Source: Raillietiella orientalis
Taxonomy: Eukaryota
Assembly (NCBI GenBank): GCA_036172245.1
Contig: JAYWIR010000026.1
Location: forward strand, 2,852,001-2,916,000
Length of the DNA stretch: 64,000 nucleotides
Reading direction: 5' to 3'
Part shown: positions 1 to 60,952 of the stretch, piece by piece
How positions within the stretch are numbered: the first letter of the stretch is position 1
How the letters are laid out: each line of letters starts with the position of its first letter
Made by a program: the position numbers and the translations under genes
Notes under the pieces: generated by a model
Databases searched by the model: none
The model's input: the letters and a program-made list of their open reading frames with translations, nothing else
What the model was told of the DNA's origin: nothing

Positions 1-639
1 CGAGACGATTGCGGGGTGTCGGCTGTACTGGCAATGCGGCATCCGCAACACCTGCGGGGTCGCGTTCTTCGTGAAGCCGGCCATCGACGCTGCCGTGAAG
101 GGCGTGCGCTTCGATGACGACGGTCGGGTCGGTCAGCTGACTCTCGGCTGGTACGACTCGATCGATCTGATCGTCACGAATGTGTACGCCCCAACCGGTC
201 AAAAGGGATACAGCAACCGTACCAGGCTGCTTGAATCCCTGAAGCGCGACTGGCTGGCGAACACGAGCGTGCGGAAGGCTCACCTGATAGCGGGAGATTT
301 CAATCTCCGCCTGCTAACAGGTGAGCCGGAAACACAAGTGAACGCGATGAACGAGTTGTGCGCCGCCATGCGTGCGCGCAACTTGTTCGCAGGTGAGAGG
401 GGAATGGTCCGCAGCATCGACCACGTCTTCCTCGACGCTGACCTGTGTTCACCGGTCGGCAAACGGGGGAGGGTTGCGTCAACGTTCTCGGACCATTCCC
501 GGTTAACTTTTGAGATGCGGCCTCGCGACAAAGGACCGCCATCCAGGGACTGGCGTCTACCCTGGGACTGGACGCGACTCTCAGGTGCGAAGGAACACCT
601 TCGCGAATACCTGAGAGGCGTCACGCTCCGGAATCTCCA
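1..639 (+). mobile_element. Segment A: family-A ORF2 endonuclease domain, interrupted at 639
   Basis: ORF 71-643 with NVYAP, AGDFN, SIDHV and SDH. Homology ends at ...TLRNL, where the 3' end of antisense element B begins. Confidence 0.93.
623..639 (+). repeat. 17-bp target/TSD acgctccggaatctcca (variant 1)
   Basis: Identical to 17343-17359; 15/17 identical to 6171-6187 and 11706-11722. Confidence 0.9.
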
Positions 640-853
640 TTGAAACTTGGGTGCGCCGGGACGTTTATTCTAACGAATAAACTTATACAATCTGTGACTG
701 GACCAGTAGTCCAGCCACGCCCTGGAAAGATATAGCCTGCCGGGCTACCCGTGCGCAGACCGGCGCGGTCGACCTCGGCAGCAGAGGGGAGGGGGAACGA
801 AACAAAAAGAAAAGAAAAAAATCAACAAAAATCAGGGAGGGAGCGGCAAGGGA

Positions 854-3800
854 TCACAGTCTGCTTGGAGGGCCCGTCATCCTCTGGAGGATGCCGACAA
901 GCTGTTTCTGCTTGTGTGGTTCCAGATGGGGCCATCGCGTCGCCATCCTGAGGAAACGGGCAGCATACACGTTGGCATCCCTGTCGCTGGATCCTCCCGT
1001 CGCTTTGCTCCATGCCACGACGATCCCGCGTAGGCAGCACAGGGCTGCAAGCGAGGCCGCTGGAGGCAAGGCGTCACGGACGAAGAGAGGGCGCAAAGCG
1101 TCTCTGGGGTTGCCTCCGTGGATCCCCAGGGATGCGGCAAAGCGTTTCCACAAGGGACGGAGGGCAACACAATCCACTAACAGGTGGGGGAGGTATTCCC
1201 TCTCCCCGCACCTGACACAATTAGGGTTGACACCCCCCCGCGTCCAGTGGTGTCGGCGGGCGTTGCAAGGAAGCCCCCAATGCAACACCATCAGTGCCGA
1301 CTGTTGCCACTTCATGGGGAGGGTGCGCGAGTCCATGAGCACCGGAGGCCACTCGAGATGTTCCTCTGGAACATCCAGTAGCTCTCTTCAGCGCAAAAGT
1401 CCATTTGGGGTGGTCCTCGGGGTCGCAGCGTTGGTGAGCTGACCCGTTCTCCAATCCCCGATCTTCTTTTCCCTGCTGGCGATCTTCACAGTTACCTCCC
1501 ATTGTGCCGCGACGTCGCTGCCCACATGTTCCCGTAGGGTAGGCAGTACCGCAGCAAGGGAGGTTCTTTGTGCCCACGCTCTCCTTCGGGGATTCTCGAT
1601 GATTTCTCGGAGCGTGCGGCGGGCATGCGGCCCGAACAGAGCTATTCGCTCGTGTTGCGGGCTCTGCTCCTGAATCATCGCCCACGTGCGGACGGTTTCC
1701 TGCAACCAGGCAGGACCGTTCGCTGGGCGTACGAGGATCCGCGCCGAGTTGTTCTTCACGAGCTTGGCCGCCCTCCGAAGTTGAAGTCCGCAGTGGCAGA
1801 TGGGGCTTCCGAGTGCAAAGTAGGACGAGAGTCCCGCATTGCCGGTGGCCCGCTCGACGAGGAGACGTGCAGGGAGGCACCAAGGGGTGCACCAATTTCC
1901 TGCCATAAAGGCAACAACTCGGAACTGGAGCTGTAGCTCCAGCCGCTCCAACGTCAGGAGGCCCAGACCACCATCCCGACGAGGAGCGCACAAGTCCGAA
2001 AGACGGACTCGGGGCCTCCCTCTGCCCCAAAGGGCGATCCTCAGGAGGTCCTTCGTCCTCTTCTTTGACTCCGCTGAGGGGGGGCAAACAAAAAGCAAGA
2101 AGCGAAGGAGGGGGGCCGCAAACGCGTTCCACGCCGCGGCCCGTTCCTGCAGGTAGAACCTGCCGTCCTGGAACGGGCCGATCGCCGCCTAAGCCTTCTG
2201 AAGGTAGCCGGACCACGCTTCCGCAGGGGAGTAATCCCCCAACGGCACACCAAGGTACTTGAAGTACCTCACCGTGGGGATCCCCAAACGGACCCAGTCC
2301 TGCTGCCCTGCCCACGCCGCTCCGACTGGCATTACGGACGACTTCGCCCTGTTCACCGTCAGTCCTGTTCCCCGACTCAGCAGGTCGAAGAACTCCTCGA
2401 CCGCCGCAGCCGGGGTGGACATAGGCAGCAGCAGCAGAAGGTCGTCCGGGTACGCCGAAAGCGCAGGCGTACCGGGACAATCGCACGGCAGGTGCGCCAG
2501 AGTCTCCCTGTACGCTCTCAGCACCAATTCGCAATAGGCGCTGAAGAGCAAGGGGCTGAGGCTGTCTCCCTGCCGTATGCCGCGTCGCACCGGTACGCCG
2601 TGCACGGTGGATCCACTAAAAAAAACATTAATAAGCGCGTCGCGCCAGCTGGAACGCAGGTAGGCCAGCAAAGAGGCCGGGAAGCCCAAGCGTTCCAGAA
2701 GCTCCAGCAAGAGATTCTGGTCGACGCTGTCGAATGCTTTACGCAAGTCGACAGCGACCGCAAGGGCTCCCTTCCCCACCCGACCGTTCCGTCTCCCGCC
2801 AACGGACGCACCGGAATTCCGGCTGCTCAATAAGCCCCTTCCTTGTTGGAGCTCTAACCATGTGGAAGCGTGGAGCAGGTTGGCCTCCATGCTTAGCCCG
2901 GGAACAGCATAAGTCTGATCCGGGCTGATGAAGATGTTGGTAACCCGTCCCAGACGCTCTGCACACATCTTGGCTATTAACTTGGCGTCCGCATTCACTG
3001 TTGTGATGGGACGCCAGTTGTTCATGCTCCTTAGGTATCCTTCCTTCGGGAGGAGGCTCACCTTTGCTGAACGAAACGAGGTGGGAACCTCACCTGTCTC
3101 AGGAATCAGCAAGGTGAGTTGCTGTACCAGGGGGGTAAGCTCAGCCGCGAAAGTTTGCTAAAACTCCGCGGGCAGGCCGTCCTCCCCTGTAGCCTTCCGC
3201 CTCTTGAGCTTTCCGATGGCCGAGAGGATCTCGTCCATCGTGAAAGGCTCGTCGAGGCTTCTTTTCTCCTCCTCCCCGATCGCTGGAGCACCTTCCGGAA
3301 GCAGAAGTCGTGAGAAGTCTCGCTCCGGAGGCGCCCTGGCGTACAGGGAGGAGTAAAATTTCCTTACTATCCCGCGTTTCTGAGCGGGAACCGAGTGCTC
3401 CCGGCCCTAGTCGTCCATCAAGCTGGCCGACCCGGATTGCCAGGCTTGCCTCTCGGCTCCCGCTCGATACTCTGCTAACCTGCGCATGTCGGGGGTTCTC
3501 GCGTAACGTCGGGCCTGAAGATAGCACCTTTCGTTACGCGGCCCCTCCCCAAAACTCGCAGGTAGGCGATGCAGGGGGAACTGATCGCAGAACTCCTGGA
3601 CCGACCGCTTGAAGCGGTCCCAGTCCTCAAGTGTCTGCATCCTGAAGCTCCGAATAAACGCGCGGAGGTGCTCCGCCGCGTCGGGAAACTTCAGCCAGTC
3701 CCCTGGCAGACGCCACGCTGACGAGGGGGGGCCCCTGTCGCGCGGACACACTTCGAACATGATCCGACCATGGTCCGACAGCTCGGATGGTACCTTGCCG

Positions 3801-4432
3801 CGCCTGCCCACCCGAGAGCATAGGTGCTGATCAAGGTACACGTGATCGATGCTGCTTTCCATGGCCGTGTCCCCGGCCAACAAGTTGCGCGTGTTCATTT
3901 CTGCGCACAACTCGTTGACGCGGTCGTTCAGTGTATCCGGCGCACCTGAAAGCAGGCGCAGGTTGAAATCACTCGCGATCAGGTGCGCTTTGCGAACTCC
4001 GGCATCGGTCAGCCAATCGCATCTCAGGGCAAGGTAGAATTCGCTTCTTGCCTTCGCATTCAACGCGTTATTTCCGCTAGGAGCGTATAGGTTGGTGACG
4101 ACCAGGTCGATAGAGTCGGACCAGCTGAGAGTCAGCTGACCGACGCGACCTGCGTCATCGAACCGAACGTCCTTTATTGCGGTCTCGATGGCTGGCCGAA
4201 GCAGGAGCGACACCGCTTGATTTCGCATTGCCGCAACGCCACAACAACCGCCCACCCGAGATCCGGTCGATCTCCCGGGCTTGATCTGCGGAGATCACGT
4301 GGATCTCCTGCAGCAGCACAGTCGAGGATGCCAGAGATTGGCGGCCACGTCACGCCTCTTGCCGTCGTCGCTTAGCCCGTTCACGTTCCAACAGGCGATC
4401 AGAAGACGACGCCGAGAGGCGATTCCCGGCAT
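854..4432 (-). pseudogene. Element B ORF2 (APE-RT-zinc finger) with stops and frameshifts
   Basis: Fragments 3407-4255 (APE), 2189-3112 (RT; YADD changed to YPDD), 1388-2098 and 854-1342 (CVRCGERE..HLLVDC). Confidence 0.93.
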
Positions 4433-6088
4433 TATGGCTGGGAAAGTGGCGTCGCGGCACCTGCCGCGGGGCAGGTGTACGAAAGGTCCATCGGTACGAG
4501 GACCATCGGAACGAGGACGGAGGCCTCTTTAGGCGCCTGGGGTACCTGTTCGGCCTCCATCCTCACCATCCCCTGCGTGTCCGAGCGTGGAATTCTCTCG
4601 GGCGACGGGTCCCGGGAGTTTCCCACGCTCATGACACCCTCGCTACCGGAAGCCATCTCTTCCCCTTCGTCGGGGGAGACGATCTTCCGGGGCATTGTGG
4701 ACTTTCGTCCTGCCTTTTTGCGGGGTGACGCAGAGATGGATGCTGTGTTTCCGGCCTTCACCTCGTGTCGGAAGTGGCCGACTCCTGAGGGGAAGCCGGA
4801 CGCCTGACGGCCTTCTTGCCAGCCTTGGGGGCAACCGGCTGCAACGAGGCAGCTGGCTCCTCCGCGGCGCGCTCGAAGGCGACGTCATCGAGCGTAGGCT
4901 CGATGACGGACGCCGCCGCCTCGCTCCCCTCCTTGTTGACTTTGTCAACGGAGGGTTGAGCAGGGGCAGCAGCGAGTTCTTTAGCGCCGCATTCGTCGAT
5001 GGCGGGAATCCGCTCTACAACGACGCAGCAGCTTTTTATTTTATCGCGGCGCAGAGCGGTTTCGCTCAGTTTCGCCAAGTCCTTTCCCTTTTTATGGGAG
5101 TTTTTCTTGGGGTCGACCTTCTGCCACCCTGGCTCTTGACCCTCGCCCTCGACCTTTTCGGCGTGTTTCGCCGAGGTCTTGAGGCTGGCCTTCGCCTTGG
5201 TGGCGGAGGTGACCTCCTTAGGAGCAGCACGAGCTGCCAGCTTTTTTCTCTTTTTTGCCGCGCGCTTTCTCGCGTTTTCCGCAGACACGACGCGGACTGT
5301 GTTTTGGGGGCACACCAGACGGGTGTGCCCCGCTTGTTTGCATTGCTGGCACTGCACGCTCGGACACCTCATTTTAAGGTGACCAAAGCTGCTGCAGCAG
5401 CCGCAAAACTTGGGTTTCCCGACGTACCACACGTAAACGGATTCACCGTTGACGGTAAGTTTGTGAGAAACTCACATCCCTCGCAAACCGTCACTCGCGC
5501 TGCACCCAAGCCGCCAAGCACCCCGTCGTAATCGACAAAAGGAGTAGGCTTTCCCCACAGCGCGTGGACAGTTGCAAACTTTTCTAATTCGTTCCGGACG
5601 GCCTCCTTCGTCATCCGGAACGTGATACCGGTCAGGTGAACGATCACCGACCGGTCTTCAGTAATGGGGAGAAGCCTCCGGCTGCCCATAATTACGGGGG
5701 TTCGCAGAAGTCTCTGCGCAAAAGTTGCTTCCTTGCAGATAACTTCCACAAATTGACCCCCGCTTCTGACGGACATAGGCAGAAGCTCCTCTTTTTGTAC
5801 ACCCAGAACGCGCATCGCCTGAGAAAAGGCGCGCGCGTTCTCGGGAGAATATGAACCACCTACCTTATATAGAAGGGGTGGGTTATACCCCTCCTCCAGG
5901 TAAGCGCGCATTTCCGCCATAGCCGCTGGCGTAGGTGCCGCAGCCACGGCGTTCCAAGCCCTGAGTAGGGCCAAGGGCGCATCCATGCTGGCGGGAGCCT
6001 CCACTGATGCGGGAGCCCCCACCTCCATCTCCTCCGGGGGTAATGAGGTCATCGCCCCCGGATCCTCACCGGTGGTGGTATCAGGCAT
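4432..6088 (-). pseudogene. Element B ORF1 (gag-like, two CCHC knuckles), frameshifted
   Basis: MPDTTTGEDP start; knuckles CGCCSSFGHLKMRC and CQQCKQAGHTRLVC; split into three ORFs; stop TAA overlaps the ORF2 ATG (TAATG). Confidence 0.9.
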
Positions 6089-6170
6089 TGCTGCCGAATC
6101 CTCCACCCACACCACGCACAAGCACCAACGGAAATGAAACTCAGGAGCAACGAAAAGACACGTCCGCTCG

Positions 6171-6187
6171 ACGCTCCGCAGTCTCCA
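6171..6187 (+). repeat. 17-bp target/TSD acgctccgcagtctcca (variant 2) between tandem B and C
   Basis: Exact match to 11706-11722. Confidence 0.9.
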
Positions 6188-6400
6188 TTGAAACCCGGGT
6201 GCGCCGGGACGTTTATTCTAACGAATAAACTTATACAATCTGTGACTGGACCAGTAGTCCAGCCACGCCCTGGAAAGATATAGCCTGCCGGGCTACCGGT
6301 GCGCAGACCGGCGCGGTCGACCTCGGCAGCAGAGGGGAGGAGGACCGAAACAAAAAGAAAACAAAAAATAAACAAAAATCAGGGAGGGAGCGGGAAGGGA

Positions 6401-9400
6401 TCACAGTCTGCTGGGAGGGTCCGTCATCCTCTGGAGGATGCCGACAAGCTGTTTCTGCTTGTGTGGTTCCAGATGGGGCCATCGCGTCGCCATCCTGAGG
6501 AAACGGGCGGCATACACGTTGGCATCCCTGTCGCTGGATCCTCCCGTCGCTGTGCTCCATGCCACGACGATCCCGCGTAGGCAGCACAGGGCTGCAAGCG
6601 AGGCCGCTGGAGGCAGGGCGTCACGGACGAAGAGGGGGCGCAAAGCGTCTCTGGGGTTGCCTCCGGGGATCCCCAGGGCTGCGGCAAAGCGTTTCCACAA
6701 GGGACGGAGGGCAACACAATCCACTAACAGGTGGGGGAGGTATTCCCTCTCCCCGCACCTGACACAATTAGGGTTGACACCCCCCCGCGTCCAGTGGTGT
6801 CGGCGGGCGTTGCACGGAAGCCCCCAATGCAACACCATCAGTGCCGACTGTTGCCACTTCATGGGGAGGGTGCGCGAGTCCATGAGCACCGGAGGCCACT
6901 CGAGATGTTCCTCTGGAACATCCAGTAGCTCTCCCCAGCGCAAAAGTTCATTTGGGGTGGTCCTCGGAGTCGCAGCGTTGGTGAGCTGACCCGTTCTCCA
7001 ATCCCCGATGTTCTTTGCCCTGCTGGCGATCTTGACAGTAACCTCCCATTGTGCCGCGACGTCGCTGCCCAGATGTTCCCGTAGGGTAGGCAGTACCGCA
7101 GCAAGGGAGGTTCTTTGTGCCCACGCTCTCCTTCGGGGATTCTCGATGATTTCTCGGAGCGTGCGGCGGGCATGCGGCCCGAACAGAGCTATTCGCTCGT
7201 GTTGCGAGCTCTGCTCCTGAATCATCGCCCACGTGCGGACGGTTTCCTGCAACCAGGCAGGACCGTTCGCGGGGCGTACGAGGATCCGCGCCGAGTTGTT
7301 CTTCACGAGCGTGGCCGCCCTCCGAAGTTGAAGTCCGCAGTGGCAGATGGGGCTTCGGAGTGCAAAGTAGGACGAGAGTCCCGCATTGCCGGTGGCCCGC
7401 TCGACGAGGAGACGTGCAGGGAGGCACCAAGGGGTTCACCAATTTCCTGCCATAAACGCAACAACTCGGAACTGGAGCTGTAGCTCCAGCCGCTCCAACG
7501 TCAGGAGGCCCAGACCACCATCCCGACGAGGAGCGCACAAGTCCGAAAGACGGACTCGGGGCCTCCCTCTGCACCAAAGGGCGATCCTCAGGAGGTCCTT
7601 CGTCCTCTTCTTTGAATCCGCTCAGAAGTAGCAAACAAAATGCAAGGGGCGAAGGAGGGGTGCCGTAAGCGCGTTCCACGCCGCGACCCGTTCCTGCAGG
7701 TAGAACCTGCCGTCCTGGAACGGGCCGATCGCCGCCTGAGCCTTCTGAAGGCAGCCGGACCACGCTTCCGCACGGGAGTAGTCCCCCAACGGCACACCAA
7801 GGTACTTGAAGTACCTCACCGTGGGGATCCCCAAACGGACCCAGTCCTGCTGCCCTGCCCACGCCGCTCCGACTGGCATTACGGACGACTTCGCCCTGTT
7901 CACCGTCAGTCCTGTTCCACGACTCAGCAGGTCGAAGAAGTCCTCGACCGCCGAGGCCGGAGTGGACATAGGCAGCAGCAGCAGAAGATCGTCCGCGTAC
8001 GCCGAAACCGCAGGCGTACCGGGGCAATCGCACGGCAGGTGCGCAAGAGTCTCCCTGTACGCTCTCAGCACCAATTCGAAAAGGCGCTAAAGAGCAGGGG
8101 GCTCAGGCTGTCTCCCTGCCGTATGCCGCGTCGCACCGGTACTCCGTGCACGGTTTGCCCGCTGAAAAGAACATTAATGAGCGCGTCGCGCCAGCTGGAG
8201 CGCAGGTAGGCCAACAAAGAGGCCGGGAAGCTCAAGCGTTCCAGAAGCTCAAGCAGGAGATTCTGGTCGACGCTGTCGAATGCTTTACGCAAGTCGACAG
8301 CGACCGCAAGGGCTCCCTTCCCCACCCAACCGTTCCGTCTCCCGCCAACGGACGCACCGGAATTCCGGCTGCTCAATAAGCCCCTTCCTTGTTGTAGCTC
8401 TAACCATGTGGAAGCGTGGAACAGGTTCGCGTCCATGCTCCGCCCGGGAACAGCATAAGTCTGTTCCGGGCTGAAGAAGATGTTGGCGACCCGTCCCAGG
8501 CGCTCTGCCCACATCTTGGCTATCAACTTGGCGTCCGCATTCACTATTGTGATGGGACGCCAGTTGTTCATGCTCCTTAGGTCTCCTCCGTTCGGGAGGA
8601 GCCGCACCTTTGCTGAACGAAACGAGGTGGGAACGTCACCTGTTTCACGGATCAGCAAGGTGAGCTGATGTACCAGGGGAGTAAGCTCAGCCGGGAAAGT
8701 TTGGTAAAACTCCGCGGGCAGGCCGTCCTCCCCTGGAGCCTTCCGCCTCTTGAGCTTTCCGATGGCCGAGAGGATCTCGTCCAGCGTGAAAGGCTCGTCG
8801 ATGCTTCTTTTCTCCTCCTCCCCGATCTCTAGAGCACCTTTTGGAAGCAGAAGTCGTAAGACGTCTCGCTCCAAAGGCGCCCTGGCGTACAGGGAGGAGT
8901 AAAATTTTCCTACTATCCCGCGTTTCTGAGCGGGAACCGAGTGCTCCCGGCCCTGGTCGTCCAGCAAGCTGGCCGATCCGGATTGCCAGGCTTGCCTCTC
9001 GGCTCCCGCTCGGTACTCTGCTAACCTGCGCATGTCGGGGGTTCTCGCGTAACGTCGGGCCTGAAGATAGCACCTTTCGTTACGCGGCCCCTCCCCAAAA
9101 CCTGCAGGTAGGCGATGCAGGGGGAACTGATCGCAGAACTCCTGGACCGACCGCTTGAAGCGGTCCCAGTCCTGAAGTGTCTGCATCCTGAAGCTTCGAA
9201 TAAACGCGCGGAGGTGCTCCGCCGCGTCGGGAAACTTCAGCCAGTCCCCTGGCAGACGCCACGCTGACGAGGGGGGGCCCTTGTCGCGCGGACGCACTTC
9301 GAACATGATCCGACCATGGTCCGACAGCTCGAATGGTACCTTGCCGCGCCTGCCCACCCGAGAGCATAGGTGCTGATCAAGGTACACGTGATCGATGCTG

Positions 9401-9981
9401 CTTTCCATGGCCGTGTCCCCGGCCAACAAGTTGCGCGTGGTCATTTCTGCGCACAACTCGTTGACGCGGTCGTTCAGTGTATCCGGCGCACCTGAAAGCA
9501 GGCGCAGGTTGAAATCACCTGCGATCAGGTGCGCTTTGCGAACTCCTGCATCGGTCAGCCAATCGCGTCTCAGGGCAAGGTAGAATTCCCTTCTTGCCTT
9601 CGCCCTCAACGCGTTATTTCCGCTAGGAGCGTATAGGTTGGTGACGACCAGGTCGATAGAGTCGGACCAGCTGAGAGTCAGCTGACCGACGCGACCTGCG
9701 TCATCGAACCGAACGTCATTTATTGCGGTCTCGATGGCTGGCCGAAGCAGGAAGGCGACACCGCTTGATTTCGCGGTGCCGCAACGCCACAACAGCCGCC
9801 CACCCGAGATCCGTTCGATCTCCCGGGCTTGATCTGCGGAGATCACGTGGATCTCCTGCAGCAGCACCAGGTCGAAGGATGCCAGGGTGGCGGCCACGTC
9901 ACGCCTCTTGCCGTCGTCGCTTAGCCCGTTCACGTTCCAACAGGCGATCAGAAGACGACGGCGAGAGGCGATTCCCGGCAT
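6401..9981 (-). pseudogene. Element C ORF2 (APE-RT-zinc finger), few disablements
   Basis: 638-aa ORF 8065-9981 (ACWNVNG, LQEIH, GDFN, SDH, KAFD, QGDSLSP); frameshifts near 8080 and 7625; stop near 7436. Confidence 0.93.
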
Positions 9982-11623
9982 TATGGCTGGGAAAGTGGCG
10001 TCGCGACACCTGCCGCGGGGCAGGTGTAGGAAAGGTCCATCGGTACGAGGACGGAGGCCTCTTCAGACGCCTAGGGTACCTGTTCGGCCTCCATCCTCAC
10101 CATCTTCTCCGTGTCGGAGCGTGGAATTCACCCGGGCGACGGGTCCCGGGAGTTTCCCACGCTCATGGCACCCTCGCTACCGGAAGGCATCTCTTCCCCT
10201 TCGTCGGGGGAGACGATCTTCCGGGGCATTGTAGACTTCCGTCCTGCCTTTTTGCGGGGTGCCGCGGAGATGGATGCTGTGTTTCCTGCTTTCACCTCGG
10301 CGTCAGAAGTGGCCGACTCCTGAGGGGAAGCCGAACGCCTGACGGCCTTCTTGCCAGCCTTGGGGCAACCGGCTGCAGCGAGGCAGCCAGCTCCTCCGCG
10401 GCGCGCTCGAAGGCGACGTCATCGAGCGTGGGCTCCATGACGGACGCCGCCGCCGCGCTCCCCTCCATGTTGACTTTGTCAACGGAGGGTTGAGCAGGGG
10501 CAGCAGCGAGTTCTTTAGCGCCGCATTCGTCGATGGCGGGAATCCGCTCTACAACGACGCAGCAGCTTTTTATTTTATCGCGGCGCAGAGCGGTTTCGCT
10601 CAGTTTCGCCAAGTCCTTTCCCTTTTTATGGGAGTTTTTCTTGGGGTCGACCTTCTGCCACCCTGGCTCTTGACCCTCGCCCTCGACCTTTTCGGCGTGT
10701 TTCGCCGAGGTCTTAAGGCTGGCCTTCGCCTTGGTGGCGGAGGTGACCTCCTTAGGAGCAGCACGAGCTGCCAGCTTTTTTCTCTTTTTTGCCGCGCGCT
10801 TTCTCGCGTTTTTCGCGGACACGACGCGGACGGTGTTTTGGGGGCACACCAGACGGGTGTGCCCCGCTTGTTTGCATTGCTGGCACTGCACGCTCGGACA
10901 CCTCATTTTAAGGTGACCAAAGCTGCTGCAGCAGCCGCAAAACTTGGGTTTCCCGACGTACCACACGTCAACGGATTCACCGTTGACGGTAACTTTGTGG
11001 GGAAACTCACATTCCTCGCAAACCGTCACTCGCGCTGCACCCAAGCCGCCAAGCACCCTGTCGTAATCGACAAAAGGAGTAGGCTTTCCCCACAGCGCGT
11101 GGACAGTTGCAAACTTTTCTAATTCGTTCCGGACGGCCTCCTTCGTCATCCGGAACGTGATACCGGTCAGGTGAACGATCACCGACCGGTCTTCAGTAAT
11201 GGGGAGAAGCCTCAGGCTGCCCATAATTACGGGGGTTCGCAGAAGTCTCTGCGCAAAAGTTGCCTCCTTGCAGATAGCTTCCACAAATTGACCCTTGCTT
11301 CTGACGGACATAGCCAGAAGCTCCTCTTTTTGTACACCGAGAACGCGCATCGCCTGCGAAAAGGCGCGCGCGTTCTCGGGAGAATATGAACCACCTACCT
11401 TATATAGAAGGGGTGGGTTATACCCCTCCTCCAGGTAAGCGCGCATTTCCGCCATAGCCGCTGGCGTAGGTGCCGCAGCCACGGCGTTCCAAGCCCTGGG
11501 TAGGGCCGGGGGCGCATCCGTGCTGGCGGGAGCCTCCAGTGATGCGGGAGCTCCCACCTCCATCTGCTTCAAGGGCAATGAGGTCATCGTTCCCGGATCC
11601 TCACCGGTGGTGGTATCAGGCAT
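9981..11623 (-). pseudogene. Element C ORF1, frameshifted in its 3' part
   Basis: 443-aa ORF 10292-11623 with two CCHC knuckles; TAATG overlap at 9979-9983. Confidence 0.9.
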
Positions 11624-11687
11624 TTCTGCCTAATCCTCCACCCACACCACGCAAGAGCACCAACGGAAATGGAACTCAGGAGCAACG

Positions 11688-11729
11688 AAAAGGCACGTCC
11701 GCTCGACGCTCCGCAGTCTCCAAGACTGG
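11688..11729 (-). promoter_or_regulatory. Putative Inr + DPE core promoter spanning the C/target junction
   Basis: CCAGTCT (A at 11727, in the host sequence) and GGACG at 11700-11696, i.e. +28 to +32. The GACGT motif recurs at the 5' ends of B, E, G, J, L and M. Function is inferred. Confidence 0.5.
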
Positions 11730-14700
11730 GACCTCTTCAAGGCCTCGTTCCGCGAGTTCTGCGAGGAGTTTCCCCTGCTTGCCTGCCCCCCGGATTCTGG
11801 GAGGGGGCTCGGAACCATCGGGCTTATCTACAGGCCCGCCGGTACGAGAGGACTCCGAATGTCCGTCGCCTCGCGGAATATCAAGCCGGGGCCGAACGCC
11901 AAGCCTGGCAATCCGGGTCGGCCAGCTTGCTGGACGACCAGGGCCGGGAGCGATCCGCCCCACCCGCGATCAGGCACCTCGTGCGACGTTATTACTCCTC
12001 CCTCTACGCTAGGGCACCCCCAGAGCGGAACGCCTCAAGGCTCCTGCTCCCGGATGGAGCCCCGGCAATAGGGGAGGAGGAGAAGATCAGCCTCGACGAG
12101 CCTTTTTCTACCGGTGAAATTCTCGCCGGTATTAATAGGCTCTAGAGGCGAAAGGCGCCAGGGGAGGATGGCCTGCCTGCGGAATTCTTCCAATGTTTCG
12201 CAACAGAGCTGGCACCCCTGGTGCTTCAGTTGACCGGGCTGATGCGAGACGAAGGCGACGTTCCCGCCTCGTTTCGGTCAGCCCATGTGAGGCTCCTTCC
12301 GAAGGGAGGAGACCTGAGATCCCTAGGCAACTGGCGTCCGATCACAATTGTGAATACGGACGCCAAGCTCATCGCTGGTTTGTGGGCTTCCCGTTTAGGA
12401 CAGGTGGCAGACTCCATAATTAGCCCTAAGCAGACATACGCTGTTCCCGGGCGAAGTATGGATGCCAACCTGTTCTTCGTGAGCACATGGTTCCATGTGC
12501 AACGCTGCCTGAATGAAACTGGCGGAAAGATTGGCAACCTCACTTTGGGGCCGCCAGACGGGCTGAGAATGGACACATGGGCTGGGAAGGGGCCCTAGCG
12601 ATCGCGGTCGATCTCCATAAGGCGTTCGACTGCTTTGACCAGGAGCTACTGTTGGAGCTCCTGGGTCGCACGGGCTTCCCACCCTCCCTTCTCTCCTTCC
12701 TGCGCTCCTGCTGGCGCAACGCCATAATTAACATCTGTTTCTCCAGCCAACAGGTGTACGGCGTGTCGGTGCGGCGGGGCATACGGCAGGGCGATAGCCT
12801 CAGTCTCCTGCTCTTTAGCACCTACTTTGTGTTGGTGCTGAGAGCGTACAGGGTGACTTTGGCTGCCCTGCCCAGCTCGTGCCCCGGCCCCCCCGCCGTA
12901 GCAGGATACGCCGACGACCTTCTGCTCATGTTGCCCATGTCCGCCCCGGCAGCCGCAGTCGAGGATTTCTTCGACCTGCTAAGTCGTGGGACTGGACTGC
13001 GGGTAAACAAGGCGAAGTCGTCGGTCGTACCGGTGGGTGCGACGTGGGTCGGACGGCCTGACTGGATCCGCTTGGGGATCCCCGCGGCCAGGTACCTGAA
13101 GTACCTGGGTGTCCCGTTGGGGGACTTCTTCCTCGCAGAAGCCTGGTCAGGTCGTCTCCAAAAGGTAGAGTTGGCAATCGGCCCGTACCTGGAAGGCAAG
13201 TTCCTTCTGCCGGAACGGGCCGCGGTGTGGAACGCTTCCGCGGCTCCCATCCTCCGCCCCCTGCTTTTTGTGTGCTTCGTCCCCCGTGACATTAAAAAGA
13301 GGACAAAAGACCTACTCCGCATCGCCCTCTGGGGCAGCGGGAGGCCACGTGTGCCTCTGGATGATTTATGCGCTCCTCGTCGGGACGGCGGTCTCGGCCT
13401 CCTGACGCTGGAGCGCCTGGAAATACAGCTGCGATGGCGCACCCTCGCCATCGCAGCAAAGTCATGGAGCACCCCTTGGTGCGCTCCGGCCCGAATCCTC
13501 GCCAGCCGTGTGTCCAGGACGCAAGGACTCGCGTCGTTCCTTCTGTGCTCCGGCAGGAAGGTGAGAAGATGCGGCCTTCTTCTTGGGCGCATGGAAGCCC
13601 TGGTCAGAGACAACTGCTGGACGGTATGCAGCTTCGCCAACTCCTCCGCCTGGCTGGAGGAATCAGTTGCGACGTGGGCCAAGCTGAACCTCCAGACTTC
13701 CCCGGACTGGAACCGCCTGCGATTCGGCCCCAACGCCCGCTGCACACTGCGGACTACTCTGGAGTGTCCCGTCAGGAGCGCGTGGGCGGAGACCACTTCT
13801 CTAGCTTCGACCCTGCCCTTCCTCCGGAGGGCTTTAACCAGCGGCCGCAAGCCAAAGTGGCAAGTCTCCTGCCGAATCGCAGGCAAGGAGAAGAAGATGA
13901 GCGGTTGGACCATGGGAGAACTGGCGGATGCCACGACCCCGAGTGCCCTCCCTCGTGGACTTCGTCGATAGGGCGAGCTGCTCGGCATCCCGACGGATGA
14001 CCTGAAGTGGCCCCCAATACTGATAGGATCCAGGCTTCTCCCCCTGAAGTGGCAAGAGTCGGCGCTGCTGCTGTTGCACTGGGGTCTACCCTGCAACGCG
14101 CAACGCTTCCACTGGACACGGGGGAGTGTAAGGTCTGAGTGTGCCAGGTGTGGGGAGCGAGAATCGCTCCCCCACCTACTAGTTGACTGTGCTGCCCTCC
14201 GACCCCTGTGGGAACGGTTCGGGACGACCTTCGGGCTCCCAATGGGCAGCGCGCCCAGAGACGTTCTTCGGCACCTCTTCGTGCGGCACGCCCTGCAGCC
14301 CGCCGCAGCCCTCGCAGCCCTCTGCTGCATCCGGGGCATCGTGGCGGCATGGAGCGACATTCGCGACGAAGGAGTGGATGCCAACGTGAGGGATGTCATG
14401 CCGTATGCGGTCTGCTTCATGCGGAGAGCAGCGAGATGGCCACATCTGGGAAACATGAAGATGGACCTAGAGGGCATCCTGCGAAGGATGGACCCTCCTC
14501 TAAGTGGATTGTGATCCCTTCCTCTCCCTCCAAACTCTTTTTTTTGCTTTCCTTATCTTTATTTTTCTTTTTGTTTTGATACCTATCCCCCTCCACTGCC
14601 GAGCAGCGTCACGCCGGGCTACGTCTCGGCGTCCCGGCAGGTCCGGTGTCGTGTGGCCGTTAGTGGGGCCTCGTACCACGTTTATGCAGAGTTTTTTCAA

Positions 14701-14732
14701 TAAACGCCCCGGGCGTACCCGGGTGGCAACCT
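11706..14732 (+). mobile_element. Segment D: 3' half of a family-A element (linker-RT-zinc finger-3' UTR)
   Basis: Resumes ORF2 as TLRSLQDWDLFK straight after C; RT in ORF 12577-13971 (DLHKAFD, YADD); finger in 14074-14514; AATAAA 14699-14704 and terminal hairpin. Confidence 0.94.
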
Positions 14733-17342
14733 AAAATCCCGCAGGTAGGCGATGCAGGGGGAACTGATCGCAGAACTCCTTGACCGACCGCTTGAAGCGG
14801 TCCCAGTCCTAAAGTGTCTGCATCCTCAAGCTCCGAATAAACGCGCGGAGGTGCTCCGCCGCGTCGGGAAACTTCAGCCAGTCCCCTGGCAGACGCCACG
14901 CTGACAAGGGGGGGCCCTTGTCGCGCGGACGCACTTCGAACATGATCCGACCATGGTCCGACAGCTCGGATGGTACCTTGCCGCGCCTGCCCACCCGAGA
15001 GCATAGGTGCTGATCAAGGTACACGTGATCGATGCTGTTTTCCATGTCCGTGTCCCCAACCAACAAGTTGCGCGTGTTCATTTCTGCGCACAACTCGTTG
15101 ACGCGGTCGTTCAGTGTATCCGGCGCACCTGAAAGCAGGCGCAGTTTGAAATCACCTGCGATCAGGTGCGCTTTGCGAACTCGTGCATCGGTCAGCCAAT
15201 CGCGTCTCAGGGCAAGGTAGAATTCCCTTCTTGCCTTCGCCCTCAACGCGTTGTTTCCGCTAGGAGCGTATAGGTTGGTGACGACCACGTCGATAGAGTC
15301 GGACCAGCTGAGAGTCAGCTGACCGACGCGACCTGCGTCATCGAACCGAACGTCCTTTATTGCGGTCTCGATGGCTGGCCGAAGCAGGTAGGCGACACCG
15401 CTTGATTTCGCGGTGCCGCAACGCCACAACAGCCGCCCACCCGAGATCCGTTCGCTCTTCCGGGCTTGATCTGCGGAGATCACGTGGATCTCCTGCAGCA
15501 GCACCAGGTCGAAGGATGCCAGGGTGACGGCCACGTCACGCCTCTTGCCGTCGACGCTTAGCCCCTTCACGTTCCAACAGGCGATCAGAAGACGACGGCG
15601 AGAGGCGATTCCCGGCATTATGGCTGGGAAAGTGGCGTCGCGGCACCTGCCGCGGGGCAGGTGTACGAAAGGTCCATCGGAACGAGGACGGAGGCCTCTT
15701 CAGGAGCATGGGTACCTGTTCGGCCTCCATCCTCACCATGCCCTCCGTGTCCGAGCGTGGAATTCTCTCGGGCGACGGGTCCCGGGAGTTTCCCACGCTC
15801 ATGGCACCCTCGCTACCGCTAGCCATCTCTTCCCCTTCGTCGGGGGAGACGATCTTCCGGGGCATTGTGGACTTTCGTCCTGCCTTTTTGCGGGGTGCCG
15901 CGGAGATGGATGCTGTGTTTCCGGCCTTCACCTCGGGGTCGGAAGTGGCCGACTCCTGAGGGAAAGCCGGACGCCTGACAGCCTTCTTGCCAGCCTTGGG
16001 GGCAACCGGCTGCAGCGAGGCAGCGAGCTCCTCCGCGGCGCGCTCGAAGGCGACGTCATCGAGCGTGGGCTCGATGACGGACGCCGCCGCCTCGCTCACC
16101 TCCTTGTTGACTTTGTCAACGGAGGGTTGAGCAGGGGCAGCAGCGAGTTTTTTAGCGCCGCATTCGTCGATGGCGGGAATCCGCTCTACAACGACGCAGC
16201 AGCTTTTTATTTTATCGCGGCGCGGAGCGGTTTCGCTCAGTTTCGCCAAGTCCTTTCCCTTTTTATGGGAGTTTTTCTTGGGGTCGACCTTCTGCCACCC
16301 TGGCTCTTGACCCTCGCCCTCGACCTTTTCGGCGTGTTTCGCCGAGGTCTTGAGGCTGGCCTTCGCCTTGGTGGCGGAGGTGACCTCCTTAGGAGCAGCA
16401 CGAGCTGCCAGCTTTTTTCTCTTTTTTGCCGCGCGCTTTCTCGCGTTTTTCGCGGACACGACGCGGACTGTGTTTTGGGGGCACACCAGACGGGTGTGCC
16501 CCGCTTGTTTGCATTGCTGGCACTGCACGCTCGGACACCTCATTTTAAGGTGACCAAAGCTGCTGCAGCAGCCGCAAAACTTGGGTTTCCCGACGTACCA
16601 GACGTCAACGGATTCACCGTTGACGGTAAGTTTGTGGGGAAACTCACATTCCTCGCAAACCGTCACTCGCGCTGCACCCAAGCCGCCAAGCACCCCGTCG
16701 TAATCGACAAAAGGAGTAGGCTTTCCCCACAGCGCGTGGACAGTTGCAAACTTTTCTAATTCGTTCCGGACGGCCTCCTTCGTCATCCGGAACGTGATAC
16801 CGGTCAGGTGAACGATCACCGACAAGTCTTCAGTAATGGGGAGAAGCCTCCGGCTGCCCATAATTACGGGGGTTCGCAGAAGTCTCTGCGCAAAAGTTGC
16901 CTCCTTGCAGATAACTTCCACAAATTGACCCTTGCTTCTGACGGACATAGCCAGAAGCTCCTCTTTTTGTACACCGAGAACGCGCATCGCCTGAGAAAAG
17001 GCGCGCGCGTTCTCGGGAGAATATGAACCACCTACCTTATATAGAAGGGGTGGGTTATACCCCTCCTCCAGGTAAGCGCGCATTTCCGGCATAGCCGCTG
17101 GCGTAGATGCCGCAGCCACGGCGTTCCAAGCCCTGAGTAGGGCCAAGGGCGCATCCATGCTGGCGGGAGCCTCCACTGATGCGGGAGCCCCCACCTCCAT
17201 CTCCTCCGGGGGCAATGAGGTCATCGCCCCCGGATCCTCACCGGTGGTGGTATCAGGCATTGCTGCCTAATCCTCCACCCACACCACGCAGAAGCACCAA
17301 CGAAAATGGAACTCACGAGCAACGAGAAGACACGTCGGCTCG
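14733..17342 (-). mobile_element. Segment E: 5' half of a family-B element (ORF1 + APE), cut by D
   Basis: Near-identical to the 5' halves of B and C; ORF1 from 17260 almost intact; ORF2 from 15618 breaks at HRLPAGF. Confidence 0.95.
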
Positions 17343-20300
17343 ACGCTCCGGAATCTCCAGGACTAAGACCTTTTTAAGGAATCGGTCCGGGAGTTCTGCG
17401 AGCAGTTCCCCCTGGATCGCCTGCCCCCCGGATTCGGCGAGGGTGCTCGCAACCATCGGGTTTATTTACAGGCTCGTAGGTACGAGCGAACTTCTAATGT
17501 CCTTCGCCTCGCCGAGTACCGCGCCGGGGCCGAACGCCAAGCCTGGAAATCCGGGTCGGCCAGCTTGCTGGAAGACCCGGGCCGGGAATGTTCGTGTGCG
17601 GCGTCGGTGCGGCATCTCGTGCGGAGTCATTATTCCTCCCTTTACGCCAGGGCGCCCCCGGATCAAGATGCCTCTCAGCTCTTGCTTAAGGATGGTGCTG
17701 CGGCAATAGGGGAGGAGGAGAAGATCAGCCTCGACGAGCCTTTTTCCACCGGAGAAATTCTCGCCGGTATCGAACGGCTCAAGAGACGGAAAGCTGCAGG
17801 GGAAGACGGCTTGCCCGCGGAGTTCTATCAGAGCTTCGCGGAAGAGCTGACACCCCTGCTGCTTCAGCTGACAAGGCTGATCCGAGACGAAGGCGATGTT
17901 GCCGCCTCGTTTCGGTCAGCCAGAGTGAGGCTCCTTCCGAAAGGAAGAGACCTTAGGAATTTGAACAACTGGCGTCCGATCACGATTGTGAATACGGACG
18001 CCAAGTTGGTTGCCGGGCTATGTGCTTCGCGTCTGGGGCATGTGGCAGAATCCATTATTAGCCCGGAGCAGACATATGCTGTTCCCGGGTGAAGTATGGA
18101 TGCCAACCTCTTCTTCGCGAGCACATGGATGCACGCGCAGAGGTGTCAAAAGGAAGGGAAAGAAAAAATCGGCAACCCCACTTTATGGCCGCCAGCTGGG
18201 CAGGGAATGGACTCCCGGGCGGGGAAGGGGGCCTTAGCGCTCGCAGTCGATCTCCATAAGGCGTTCGACTGTGTTGACCAGGGGCTTTTGTTGGAGCTCC
18301 TGGGTCGCATGGGCTTCCCACCCTCCTTGATCAACTACCTGCGCTCCTGCTGGTGCGATGCGATAATTTCCGTCTCTTTTAGCAGTCAGAAGGTGCATGG
18401 CGTGCCGGTGCGGCGGGGCATAAGGCAGGGAGATAGCCTGAGTCCCCTGCTCTTCAGCACCTACTTTGAGTTGGTGCTGAGAGCGTACAGGGTGACTTTG
18501 GCCTCCTTGCCGAGCTCGTGTGCCGGCACGCCCGCCGTGGCAGCCTATGCCGACGACCTTCTGCTCCTGTTACCTATGTCCACCCCGGCGAAGGCGGTCG
18601 GAGACTTCTTCGATCTGCTCAGCCGTGGGACCGCACTGCAGGTCAACAGGGCGAAGTCGTCGGTGGTGCCAGTAGGTGCGGCGTGGGCAGGGCAGCAGGA
18701 CTGGGTCCGTCTCGGGATCCCCACGGCGAGGTGCCTCAAGTACCTTGGTGTGCCGTTGGGTGACTATTCCCCTGAGGAAGCGTGGTCCAGCTGTCTTCAA
18801 AAAGTTGAGACGGCGATCGGCCCGTTCCTGGAAGACAAGTTTCTTCTTCCGGAACGGGCCGCGGTTTGGAACGCCTTCGCGGCTTCCATTCTCCGCTTCT
18901 TGCTTTTTGTTTGCCCCGCATCAGGAGTAGTTAAAAAGAGGACGAAGGACCTCCTCCGCATCGCCCTTTGGGGCAAGGGGAGGCCCCGAGTCCCTCTGAA
19001 GGACTTGTGCGCTCCGCATGGGGATGGTGTCCTTGGCCTCCTGACGCTAGAACGCGTGGAAATTCAGCTGCGGTGTCGAACCCTCGCCATCGCAGCGAAG
19101 ATGTGGAGGACCCCTTTGTGCGTTGCGGCCCGCCACCTCGCCAGGCGTGTGTCCCGGTGCGAAGGACTCGCGTCGTTTCTTCTGTGCCCAGGCCGGAAGA
19201 TTCGATGATGCGGTCTACTGCTCGGCCGTATGGCAACCCTGGCGAAGGAGAACGACTGGATGGTTTGTGGCCTTGCCAACTCCTCCGCTTGGCTGGAATT
19301 GACTGCTGGCACCTGGGCCAAGCACAACCAGAGGTGCGAAGACCGGATGAACTGCCTGCAAGTCGGCTTTTACGCCCGTTGAACTCTCCGTGAAATTCTT
19401 GAATTTCCACCGAGTTGCACGTGGGCGGAAGGGACACCCCTTGCTACGGCGATGCCCTACCTCCTGAGGGCGCTTCAGGATCGCCAGAAGCCGAGGTGGC
19501 AAGTCACCTGCCAGATCGCAGGCAGGGAGAAGATGTTAAGCGGCTGCACCACAGGAGAACTGGCGGACGCCACGACCCCGAGCGTCCAGCCGCGTGGATT
19601 AATGAGATAAGGCGAGCTGCTCGCCATCCCTACGGATGTGCTGAAGTGGCCCCCGGTACTAAAGGAATCCAGGATCCTGCCCCTTAAGTGGCAAGAGTCG
19701 GCGTTGCTACTGCTGCACTGGGGCTTACCCTGCAACGCACGCCGCTTCCACTCGACAAGGGGAGGTGTGGATCCTGAGTGTGTCAGGTGCGGAGAGTGGG
19801 AATCGCTCTCCCACCTTATTGTGGACTGTGCTGCCATCCGACCCCTCTGGGAACGGTGCCGGGCGACCCTCGGGCTCCCTACGGGCAGCACTCCCAGAGA
19901 CGTTCTTCGGCCCCTCTTCGTGAAGGACCCACTGCAGCCAGTTGCAGCCATCGCAGCCTTGTGCTGTGTCCGTGGCATCGTGGCGGCATGGAGCGACGCC
20001 AATAACAAAGGAGTGGGTCCACTCGCAAGGAATGTCATCCCATACGCCCAGCGCTTCATGCGGAGAGCTGCCGGATGGCCCCAACTGGGGAATATACGGA
20101 CGGACCTCGAGGCCTTCCTTCAACGGATGGGCCCTCCTCACAGCGTTAAGTGATCCCTTCCCTGCCCTCCAACTTCTTTTTGTCTGTTTATTTTTTTATT
20201 TTTCTTTTTGTTTTATTCCCATCCCCCTTCGCTGCTGAGGAACGCTACGCTGGGCTGCGTCCCGGCGTCCCGGCAGGTCCAGTGCATATTGCCGTGAGCG

Positions 20301-20367
20301 GGGCCTTGTACCGCGGATGTAGAGTTTTTTAAAAATAAACGCCCCGGGCGTACCCTGGTGTAAACCT
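17343..20367 (+). mobile_element. Segment F: 3' half of a family-A element, disabled ORF2
   Basis: Begins with the 17-bp target (17343-17359); RT in ORF 18096-19208; finger in 19638-20153; AATAAA 20334-20339 and the same terminal hairpin as D. Confidence 0.94.
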
Positions 20368-20380
20368 CCAAGGCCAGTTG

Positions 20381-21650
20381 GAGGACGTGTTTTTCCTTCA
20401 CTCCTGAGAGGGTAGTAGGAAAACGCTTTCTTGTGTGTGGTGTTTTGTGTACATCGTCGGTGTCCAATGGCCACGACGCCAGAGGACACCGCGATGGAGG
20501 TGGGAGTGGGGTAGGCTAGTTCGCCCCCACAGCCTACTGGAGCAGGGGCAGCCGCCCTGGAATCATCCATGGGCACGCCGAGGACATGGAGAGCCATGGT
20601 GGCCGCGCAAAGCGCAGAAGCCATGGCGGAGATGGCCGCATACAAGGCCTCCGGGAACAAGCCATCGCTTGTCTACCAGGTAGGAAACTTGTTCGACGGT
20701 CGGACAGCGCGCGCCTTCAGCAAAGCGTTGAAGGACGCGAATGTTACTGAGAAGAATCTGGACGGCCTCTCCGCCCTCAGCGGCGGGCAGCGGGTCGAGG
20801 TGGTCTGCAAAGATGTCACCTTGGCTCACCGCCTAATCCATTCGCCGCTGAACGTAGACGGCCGCAAGATCCTGCCAGTATCAATGGACCGCTCCGTTGT
20901 GGTCCACATGACTGGCATCACCAGCCGCATGACGTGGTCAGGGGCTGGTGAGGAATTACAAAAGTACGGTGAGGTGCACGCACTGTGGCCGAAACCCTCC
21001 ATTTTCGACGGCTTTGATAGCCTTTTTGGTGGGCAGGCTGCATCGCGGGTCACCGTAAGGGAAAATTGTGGGCTTCCTCACAAACTACAGGTGGCGCAAG
21101 AAAACGTCGACCTGTGGTATTTAGGGAAGCCCCGGTATTGCGGGCATTGTGATACCATGGGACACCTACGTAAAAGGTGTCCCAATATACAATGCCATTT
21201 GTGCGGGGAGCGGGGCCACGTTTGGCGCGTGTGCCCCAAACGCCTTACCCCGGTTCCCCCTGCCGCGAAAAAAGCGCAGGGAAAACGTGCTTCAAAGGTC
21301 TCTAGACCTAAAGTAGAAAAGGGCCAGCACAAGCTGCCAACACCTCAACCTCCGGAGCGTAAGCCGGAGGATAATCCTTCTGAAAAGGTGGAAGGCGAAG
21401 AGGGATGGCAGCTTGTAGAGGCCAGAAAGCCTAAGAAACTCCCACCCGCGGAGAGCAAAGAGCGCAAGACGGCCGGAAAGCCGAAAAAACCCGGTCCGCG
21501 CTCGAAAACTCTGCGCGAGTGCACGGTGGCACTGGAACGAATCGTCGTTCCCAAGATTGCCACCCGGAGCGTCGATATTCCCCTTGCCGTTTCCGCTGCG
21601 CTTGAGGCTCGCGACGGCGAACCCTCTGTTTACACAGAGGGTGAGCGGTG
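20381..21650 (+). mobile_element. Segment G: 5' end and ORF1 (two CCHC), tandem behind F, probably family A
   Basis: GGACGTGTTTTT at 20383; ORF1 from ATG 20467 (early TAG at 20512) homologous to B ORF1; knuckles CGHCDTMGHLRKRC and CHLCGERGHVWRVC. Family assignment inferred from the tandem position. Confidence 0.85.
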
Positions 21651-32650: not shown

Positions 32651-32787
32651 AAAGCAGAACTCTAGTGCAACCCAAGGACCCCCAAGTGCAAAATGTTTGT
32701 ATTGAGTGAATGAGAGTGCGAATGTAAATTTTGTATTTTTATAGAAAAATGAACTTACCCCACCCCTTGTGGGACTTGGGGAAACCT

Positions 32788-37100: not shown

Positions 37101-37478
37101 GAGCAAGGCTACGGGAGGATAACACGACCATAGTGCCATCCAGCCTGCCTCCCAGTTACTGAGGAGGGCGTCCCGATGGCCCCACCTGGATCCAGGAATA
37201 CAGAAGGAGCTTGCCGGCATCCTGCAAAGGATGCAACGGCCCCACCAGCAAGTGTGATCCCTTCCCTTACCCTCCCAACTTTCTTTTCTTTTTTGTTTTG
37301 TTTTTTTTTTTTTTTTCCCCGTTCCCCCTGCTGCCGTGGTGGACCGTACCGGTCTGGGAACCGGTGACCCGGCAGGCTCTGTGTTTCTTCATGCGTGGCT
37401 TGAGCAATGGTCCAGCCACCGCACGTCTTTGTAAAATTTTATTTCACAATAAAAGCTCCGGCGAAATCCGGGTGAAAA
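34148..37478 (+). mobile_element. Segment K: chimeric ORF2 (family-B endonuclease + family-L RT and 3' end) with an internal deletion
   Basis: Starts mid-APE (EIERIS); near-identical to B up to 35183, then L-like; AATAAA 37448-37453. Confidence 0.9.
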
Positions 37479-37494
37479 TCTACTGCCTTGCGTG

Positions 37495-50712: not shown

Positions 50713-50719
50713 GACTTGG

Positions 50720-50988
50720 ACGGTCCGTCCTCCCCTGGCGCCTTGCGCCTCTTGAGCCTCTTAATCCCGGCTATAATTTCGCTGGTCGTTAAGGGCTCGT
50801 TCAGGTTTTCCTTCTCTTCCTCCTTTATGGTCGAGTGTCCATCCTCAAGGACGTGCTGCGAGACGTCCCATTGCGTGGGTATCCTGGCGTGAAGTGAGAA
50901 ATAAAATCTTTGCACAAGGTGCCGTATCCCCGCTGCGGCCGCTGGTCCGTTTACCTTGTCGTCCAGCAGGCTGTCCGACGCAGACTGC
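50720..50988 (-). mobile_element. Segment R: family-A-like EN-RT linker fragment
   Basis: SLLDD...IRHLVQRFY...EPLTTSEIIAGIKRLKRRKAPGEDG. Confidence 0.82.
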
Positions 50989-51843: not shown

Positions 51844-51890
51844 GTGAGAAAACGGGAAAGAGGAAAGATATCCTCACACTTGCGGGCGCG

Positions 51891-60865: not shown

Positions 60866-60952
60866 CTTGTCTTCGTACAGGGAATATTCTCTGATTTTCA
60901 GTCTGAAACGGCTGCATGCAAGAATCCTGCAATTCTTTATTTGAAGCAGTGA

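Follow-up and report, generated by a model that had tools for sequence, protein, structure and literature searches.

A LINE-1-like retrotransposon that probably targets one 17-bp sequence in ORF2 of a related LINE family in Raillietiella orientalis

A 64,000-nt stretch of the Raillietiella orientalis genome (assembly GCA_036172245.1, contig JAYWIR010000026.1, positions 2,852,001–2,916,000 of the forward strand; hereafter the window) was analyzed, and it was found to contain two related families of long interspersed nuclear elements (LINEs), designated A and B. Three copies of family B (B1, B2 and B3) lie against pieces of family A, and the visible B ends fall at a single base of the second open reading frame (ORF2) of A, next to copies of one 17-bp sequence. 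It is likely, judging from this arrangement, that B is a target-specific, LINE-1-like retrotransposon of the apurinic/apyrimidinic endonuclease (APE) type, directed at a single sequence within the ORF2 of family A, to which it is related. Outside ribosomal DNA (rDNA), small-RNA genes, telomeres and microsatellites, LINEs with a specific target are rare; such elements are natural models for programmable, RNA-templated DNA insertion.

The 17-bp sequence, ACGCTCCG(G/C)A(A/G)TCTCCA, has four matches in the window, at positions 623, 6171, 11706 and 17343, as had been stated in an earlier reading of this DNA made from the letters alone (hereafter the sequence-only reading). The number of matches is still four when two mismatches are allowed; in the shuffle control, 0.06 matches were expected and four were reached in 0 of 100 shuffles. 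The junction read-outs confirmed the further statement that each 17-mer abuts an end of family B (4/4 copies), and all five visible B ends, namely two 3′ ends and three 5′ ends, touch a 17-mer. B is antisense to the family-A ORF2 at these sites. The 17-mer exists in two forms, with GGAAT at 623 and 17343 and GCAGT at 6171 and 11706. The two copies on either side of B2 are identical at 17 of 17 positions, and so are the two outermost copies, which differ from the inner pair at two positions.

The open family-A frame (2–643) reads ..LRGVTLRNL through the first 17-mer and then meets a stop codon 4 nt into B. The insertion point lies between the second and third bases of a glutamine codon (CAG/CAA), 46 codons past the SDH motif that ends the endonuclease, in agreement with the earlier placement of the site just downstream of this domain. 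Past the 17-mer, one family-A 3′ half (D) continues as (Q)DWDLFK, and a second one (F) continues as QD*DLFK, a stop replacing W. When the A flanks are joined, they give ..TLR(N/S)L followed by QDWDLFK, collinear with the uninterrupted ORF2 of B itself (..RMQTL QDWDRFK; RMQTLQDWDRFK). The family-A ORF2 is thus restored by removal of the inserts, as the sequence-only reading had stated, with one stop remaining in the case of F. The use of this one position by three B 5′ ends (6170/6171, 11705/11706 and 17342/17343) and two host 3′ halves, which had likewise been noticed earlier, was seen again. An Rfam search of the whole window gave no families, which means that no known RNA gene serves as the target.

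In order to judge the independence of the insertions, two repeat units, 9097–14733 and 14734–20367, were compared and found to be ~87% identical overall. In the alignment of these units, the B part is identical at 2521 of 2608 positions (96.7%) and the 17-mer at 15 of 17, whereas D and F are identical at 2362 of 3003 positions (78.7%) with just 13 gap columns. The mismatches between D and F are distributed unevenly over the codon phases, 23/89/52 in one block (chi-square p 2e-9) and 115/57/47 in the next one (p 1e-8), and they are most frequent at third positions of the codons in the ORF2 frame. No bias was found among the mismatches between B2 and B3 (5/9/10 and 13/13/10; p 0.42 and 0.78). 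Because the D/F mismatches are biased to third codon positions and gaps are few, D and F must have diverged while coding, as separate A lineages, before B broke them. The B copies, judged by their own mismatch counts, decayed neutrally after arrival. The coding-type divergence of D and F, set against the unbiased divergence of the B copies, argues for B insertions into at least two distinct A copies, which agree in their base, their orientation and the accompanying 17-bp copy. Without a site preference, the chance that any one event hits the same base and strand was estimated at ~1 in 10^4, counting a single position on one strand of a ~6-kb target. Within the window, the earlier proposal of independent, base-precise and sequence-specific insertion is thus supported.

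Several observations weigh against this interpretation. The evidence comes from one locus, with two, perhaps three, independent events, and all three B copies are defective. The divergence between B copies is patchy (0.4–8.4% per 250 nt), from which it follows that exchange among them has occurred. The step in identity at the junction is blurred, with 90.5% in the last 200 nt of B and 83.5% in the first 200 nt of A. B1 is flanked by GGAAT on its 3′ side and by GCAGT on its 5′ side, and simple insertion does not produce this combination. In addition, the 17-mer next to the B 5′ end could stem from a leader on the B RNA and not from a fresh duplication; the first 60 nt of B diverge by ~7–12%, and the 2/17 differences thus do not discriminate between leader and duplication. 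Lastly, when public sequencing data were compared with the window at 85% likeness, one contig was found to connect position 637 with 11745 across 24 other letters, as an uninterrupted, diverged A-like copy; its site reads ..CTCGC/TGACTTGG instead of ..CTCCA/GGACTGGG. This contig is weak, being a single one of depth 4 with 26 letters on its short side, under the caution line of the tool. It belongs to run X1 (Logan contigs), one of the three public runs listed and the one that contains part of the stretch; no RNA run containing it was listed. Another X1 contig, 300 nt long, stops exactly at 639, which is compatible with a branch point and is not evidence by itself. Runs X2 and X3 touched only 5/30 and 4/30 bins, mostly low-complexity sequence near 6.0–6.7 kb and at 14538–14577, and were uninformative.

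Part of these observations would fit a single ancient B insertion into one A copy, after which the ~5.6-kb unit of B 5′ part, 17-mer and A 3′ half was tandemly duplicated, the B parts were homogenized by conversion and the A parts drifted; no specificity would then be needed. Such a history, which we consider unlikely, agrees with the collinearity, near-equal length and 87% overall identity of the two units, but the 17-mers do not pair unit by unit, as they form an outer GGAAT pair and an inner GCAGT pair. The patchiness of the B divergence also suits it, as does the drop in B identity toward the junction from 98.0% to 91.3% and to ~88% in the last 60 nt, which conversion tracts ending in B would give. 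However, the third-position enrichment between D and F and the presence of 13 gap columns in ~3 kb point to coding constraint, impossible for a broken half-gene, and the left junction (A 5′ part against B1 3′ end) and the B–17-mer–B junction would still require insertion at the same base. One duplicated insertion, a possibility that the sequence-only reading had set against its own proposal, does not explain the contrast between D/F and B.

The pairing of the 17-mer forms favors true duplications and a nested history, because the inner pair is identical, the outer pair is identical and the two pairs differ from each other. Under sequence-specific insertion, the B endonuclease would nick the sense strand of A after ..AATCTCCA (after 639), between the second and third bases of the CAG/CAA codon. 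The freed 3′-OH would then prime reverse transcription of a B RNA that ends in ..GUUUCAA and has no poly(A), and the opposite strand would be cut 17 nt away, which would leave B antisense to A with a 17-bp duplication on both sides. This duplication would regenerate the target, and a second B could enter beside the first, giving the B1–17-mer–B2 dimer. We infer that the endonuclease itself reads the target sequence; the order of the nicks and the history of the locus are likewise proposals.

In the proposed history, a B element would first have entered the A copy now represented by 1–639 and F, producing the GGAAT pair. An A element (D) would have landed inside that B in the opposite orientation, 76 bp past the site in B that is paralogous to the target, and another B would have entered D at the same 17-mer, producing the GCAGT pair. 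A full-length B1 would finally have come to lie beside B2 through recombination between B copies, through re-insertion into the regenerated target, or through both. Given the outer GGAAT pair and the inner GCAGT pair, nesting is needed, as well as one or more recombination events among the B copies. Tandem re-insertion, as suggested by the sequence-only reading, is therefore retained in part: the B1–17-mer–B2 dimer and the identical 17-mers around B2 agree with it, whereas the different GGAAT and GCAGT sides of B1 are not explained by re-insertion alone.

The sites paralogous to the target were located in B1, B2 and B3, in a B-type fragment (G) and in a related full-length element (H), and none of the five was filled. 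The downstream 10 bases at these sites are the same as at the target or nearly so (GGACTGGGAC/GGATTGGGAC), and the upstream sequence has 7–10 of 17 positions in common with it. A sixth, more distant copy at 44156–43770 (−) is also uninterrupted. Should the dimer be the product of re-insertion, sequence upstream of the 17-mer would not be needed for targeting, because at the dimer junction it belongs to B; few sites bear on either point.

The empty sites also bear on the idea that the B insertions were independent events directed without sequence recognition by the endonuclease, either by a structural or chromatin hot spot or by antisense homology between B and A (~69%), which seems quite improbable. 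A and B are homologous throughout, and nested antisense insertions are common in this part of the contig, one example being an element (J) whose 5′ end adjoins a B-type fragment at another ORF2 position. Nevertheless, separate events at a hot spot would not agree in base, in strand and in the 17-bp stagger, and five of five paralogous sites in B, G and H are empty despite their common local context and downstream sequence. There is also no homology between the 3′ end of B (..GTTTCAA) and the nicked target end (..TCTCCA).

Sequence-specific insertion of B leaves room for a stronger and more tentative proposal, namely that B is specialized to parasitize a sister LINE, reading ~17 bp found only in the family-A ORF2 and sparing its own site, where the downstream 10 bases are the same and 7–8 of 17 upstream positions differ. 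This proposal is possible rather than likely at present. If it is true, each B insertion would both reach a harmless site and destroy a copy belonging to a competitor, and the regenerated target would seed B arrays. This would amount to interference between LINE families, with self/non-self discrimination that evolved after the families split, and it would clearly exemplify a retrotransposon lineage that lives in a related one and disables it. A LINE-1-like element that reads a long unique sequence, and distinguishes it from a 60%-identical paralogous site of its own, would also provide a compact natural pair of substrates for mapping the specificity of an APE endonuclease.

It is very unlikely that the nesting is reversed, with D and F being 5′-truncated A elements that landed beside B 5′ ends, or that the repeats were mis-assembled: an A-family insertion into B did happen at least once, as the 3′ end of D adjoins the interior of B3 at 14733/14734, and the short X1 contigs among the matches listed do not bridge the four junctions, but two A copies that are 21% apart would need truncation at the same base, the A 5′ part stops at this base against the B 3′ end, entry of B into A with a 17-bp duplication accounts for all three junction kinds, and B copies that differ by 3–4% at many positions are no collapsed or duplicated read artefact.

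Two further candidates were rejected. One was the interpretation of B3 and F as a single element with an inverted 5′ part; the parts overlap by 76 bp of ORF2 and the families are only 69% identical. The other was annealing-primed insertion, as no microhomology was found between the 3′ end of B and the target.

To characterize family B, its copies inside the window were compared, and it was found that B1, B2 and B3 are mutually 96.1–96.9% identical (96.1% for B1 and B2). No long terminal repeat (LTR) or terminal inverted repeat was found in B by self-comparison. In ORF2 of B2, a Pfam search revealed Exo_endo_phos (PF03372; E-value 4.7e-15) and RVT_1 (7.6e-14), and no Pfam match at E ≤ 0.01 was found in ORF1. 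The B2 endonuclease aligns along the whole human L1 endonuclease, and the motifs WNVNG, QEIH, NLYAP, GDFN, IDH and SDH are kept. The best relative of the B2 ORF2 protein is human LINE-1 ORF2p (9e-41, compared with 2.5e-10 for R2), a ranking made among solved structures and not a clade phylogeny. A PDB search with the B2 endonuclease listed 14 matches, all of them chains of L1 endonuclease or bacterial exonuclease III, and neither R1Bm nor TRAS1 endonuclease was among them at E ≤ 0.001; B therefore looks closer to the L1 group. Outside the window, the 21-mer of the B 3′ end had no matches in a metagenome collection, and a protein-guided metagenome scan with the B2 ORF2 gave 21 loci, all of which were distant (24–36% identity).

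The family-A 5′ part matched Exo_endo_phos in Pfam (E-value 1.5e-6) and is 69% identical at the nucleotide level to the endonuclease region of B; a similar value (~69%) was obtained by self-comparison of A and B over the endonuclease and reverse transcriptase (RT) regions. No match to longer database proteins was found for this 5′ part. F and positions 1–639 probably belong to the same original A copy. Based on these sequence features, A and B are non-LTR retrotransposons of the LINE-1 group and the APE type with two ORFs.

Like human LINE-1 ORF2p, B has the order APE endonuclease, linker and RT, a two-ORF layout and target-primed insertion with a duplication, the last of these being part of the mechanism proposed above. 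Human L1 has a loose TTTT/AA nick consensus and a poly(A) end, and its copies are mostly 5′-truncated. B is unlike human L1 in that one site was seen, there is no poly(A), and the 5′ ends are complete at three of three visible 5′ junctions. The 3′ terminus of B, ..AATAAACGTCCCGGCGCACCC(A/G)(A/G)GTTTCAA, stands directly against the target; a poly(A) tail is typical of L1 proper and not of all L1-group clades. The 3′ ends of A, B and G (640–670 −, 14700–14733 +, 20335–20367 + and 37450–37481 +) all lack poly(A) and have AATAAA and, after it, a short inverted repeat rich in GC (CCCGG..CCGGG). A small conserved 3′ hairpin after AAUAAA is weakly supported, with a consensus fold of −3.1 kcal/mol and six pairs, two of which show compensatory change.

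The Tx1 and R1 clades include APE-type site-specific non-LTR elements, whose listed targets comprise transposons (PMC4640811). For the APE-type element Tx1L, the insertion site is one sequence of the DNA transposon Tx1D, nicked in vitro by the Tx1L endonuclease alone (PMC1950540). Tx1L of Xenopus laevis, as described there, resembles B in being an L1-group non-LTR element with an APE-type endonuclease and one site inside a multicopy mobile element. The two differ in that the target of Tx1L is an unrelated DNA transposon, whereas that of B is the coding sequence of a paralogous LINE, entered antisense, from which B's own paralogous site differs at 7–8 of 17 positions. The comparison of B with Tx1L is one of lifestyle and not of clade placement.

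R1 in 28S rDNA, as described in bioRxiv 10.1101/158386, is also target-specific and APE-type, with a fixed target duplication between tandem copies (33 nt of rDNA in a Drosophila R1 array). Unlike B, it has a host rRNA gene as its target. According to the same source, a double insertion produces a dimer with the target duplication between its two copies, both in R1 arrays and with other elements, and the R1 dimers were attributed to double insertion followed by unequal exchange. Because the same arrangement is described there, the B1–17-mer–B2 dimer can be regarded as a double-insertion signature. Keno and Utopia in U2 snRNA genes are target-specific non-LTR elements with a multicopy target and occasional same-site tandems, like B (PMC4640811); they differ from it in having a host small-RNA gene as the target, and Utopia uses a restriction-like endonuclease. 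No LINE that specifically targets ORF2 of another LINE was found in the open-access literature, which is not proof of absence. B is probably a new target-specific APE-type LINE, akin to Tx1L in Tx1D, with a sister LINE as its target. The coordinates of the elements, target copies and unoccupied sites are given in Table 1.

Table 1. Positions of family-A and family-B parts, 17-mer copies, junctions and paralogous sites in the window.
Feature	Position	Strand	Description
Family-A ORF2, 5′ part	1–622	+	C-terminal two thirds of APE endonuclease and linker; window begins inside the element
17-mer copy 1	623–639	+	GGAAT form; native A sequence coding TLRNL; left target copy
Junction	639/640		B1 3′ end against 17-mer copy 1
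B1	640–6170	−	Full-length, 5531 bp; 3′ end at 640 with AATAAA, no poly(A); both ORFs broken
Paralogous site of B1	3627–3643	−	Unoccupied; 9/17 in common with target; same downstream GGACTGGGAC
Junction	6170/6171		B1 5′ end
17-mer copy 2	6171–6187	+	GCAGT form; between B1 5′ end and B2 3′ end
Junction	6187/6188		B2 3′ end
B2	6188–11705	−	Full-length, 5518 bp
B2 ORF2, open part	8065–9981	−	638 aa: whole APE endonuclease, linker, RT start; remainder of ORF2 frameshifted
Paralogous site of B2	9173–9189	−	Unoccupied; 10/17
B2 ORF1	10292–11623	−	443 aa, open; two CX2CX4HX4C zinc knuckles read from translation
Junction	11705/11706		B2 5′ end
17-mer copy 3	11706–11722	+	GCAGT form, coding TLRSL; perfect pair with copy 2 around B2
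Junction	11722/11723		Start of A 3′ half D
D, family-A 3′ half	11723–14733	+	Remainder of ORF2 with RT (RVT_1, 2.6e-10) and 3′ untranslated region; begins at base after insertion point; normal A 3′ end
B3	14734–17342	−	5′ 2609 bp of B (5′ untranslated region, ORF1, endonuclease); interrupted 76 bp beyond the paralogous site of B itself, where D 3′ end adjoins
Paralogous site of B3	14810–14826	−	Unoccupied; 9/17
Junction	17342/17343		B3 5′ end
17-mer copy 4	17343–17359	+	GGAAT form
Junction	17359/17360		Start of A 3′ half F
F, second family-A 3′ half	17360–20367	+	78.7% identical to D
Paralogous site of G (B-type fragment)	34788–34804	+	Unoccupied; 10/17
Paralogous site of H (related full-length element)	40054–40070	+	Unoccupied; 7/17

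The A and B copies are part of a retrotransposon island, in which members of different families follow one another head to tail, separated by little or no sequence (20367/20368, 27143/27144 and 37481/37482). The 3′ end of F passes directly into the 5′ region of an element of a further family (C1), which is followed by a second member (C2) that is 92% identical to it over 5.5 kb, and the 3′ end of G is followed by the full-length H. ORF2 of C2 (28976–32650, +) is uninterrupted and encodes 1224 aa, with Pfam E-values of 5e-18 for the endonuclease and 2e-33 for the RT. Among solved structures, the best relative of this protein is human LINE-1 ORF2p (8e-53), and R2 scored far lower. The closest database proteins for the family-C ORF2 were unlabelled RT proteins with 22–32% identity, some of them from fishes and frogs. 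C2 may be an active element.

A second antisense nesting in an ORF2, at a site other than the 17-mer, is formed by J and G. J (32798–34147, −) contains an ORF1-like frame within 32522–34036 and is cut off on its other side by the 3′ end of C2. Its 5′ end adjoins the part of G that is 96% identical to B (34148–35183, +), in the endonuclease-coding region at about B position 1877. G as a whole (34148–37481, +) is a mosaic, with 96% identity to B over B 1877–2912, ~318 bp missing, and then 77% identity to B (85% to H); this structure points to recombination or template switching between subfamilies. It was also observed that the 5′ ends of B, C1, H and J (11680–11705 −, 20379–20395 +, 37497–37515 + and 34120–34135 −) share the short motif G(G/A)ACGTG, after which comes a T-rich run that ends in C or CG. 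Located at a distance of ~6–23 nt from the junction, the motif may represent a 5′-terminal or promoter element common to the group.

The island ends near 50.7 kb, where the GC content falls from ~60% to 40–49% (~43% over 50700–64000). Beyond this boundary come host-like exons, and one encoding an MSH2-like C-terminal part was found at 51891–52625 (−), with 48–54% identity to metazoan MSH2. A SANT/Myb-like frame at 51679–51960 (+) is a candidate recognized by eye only.

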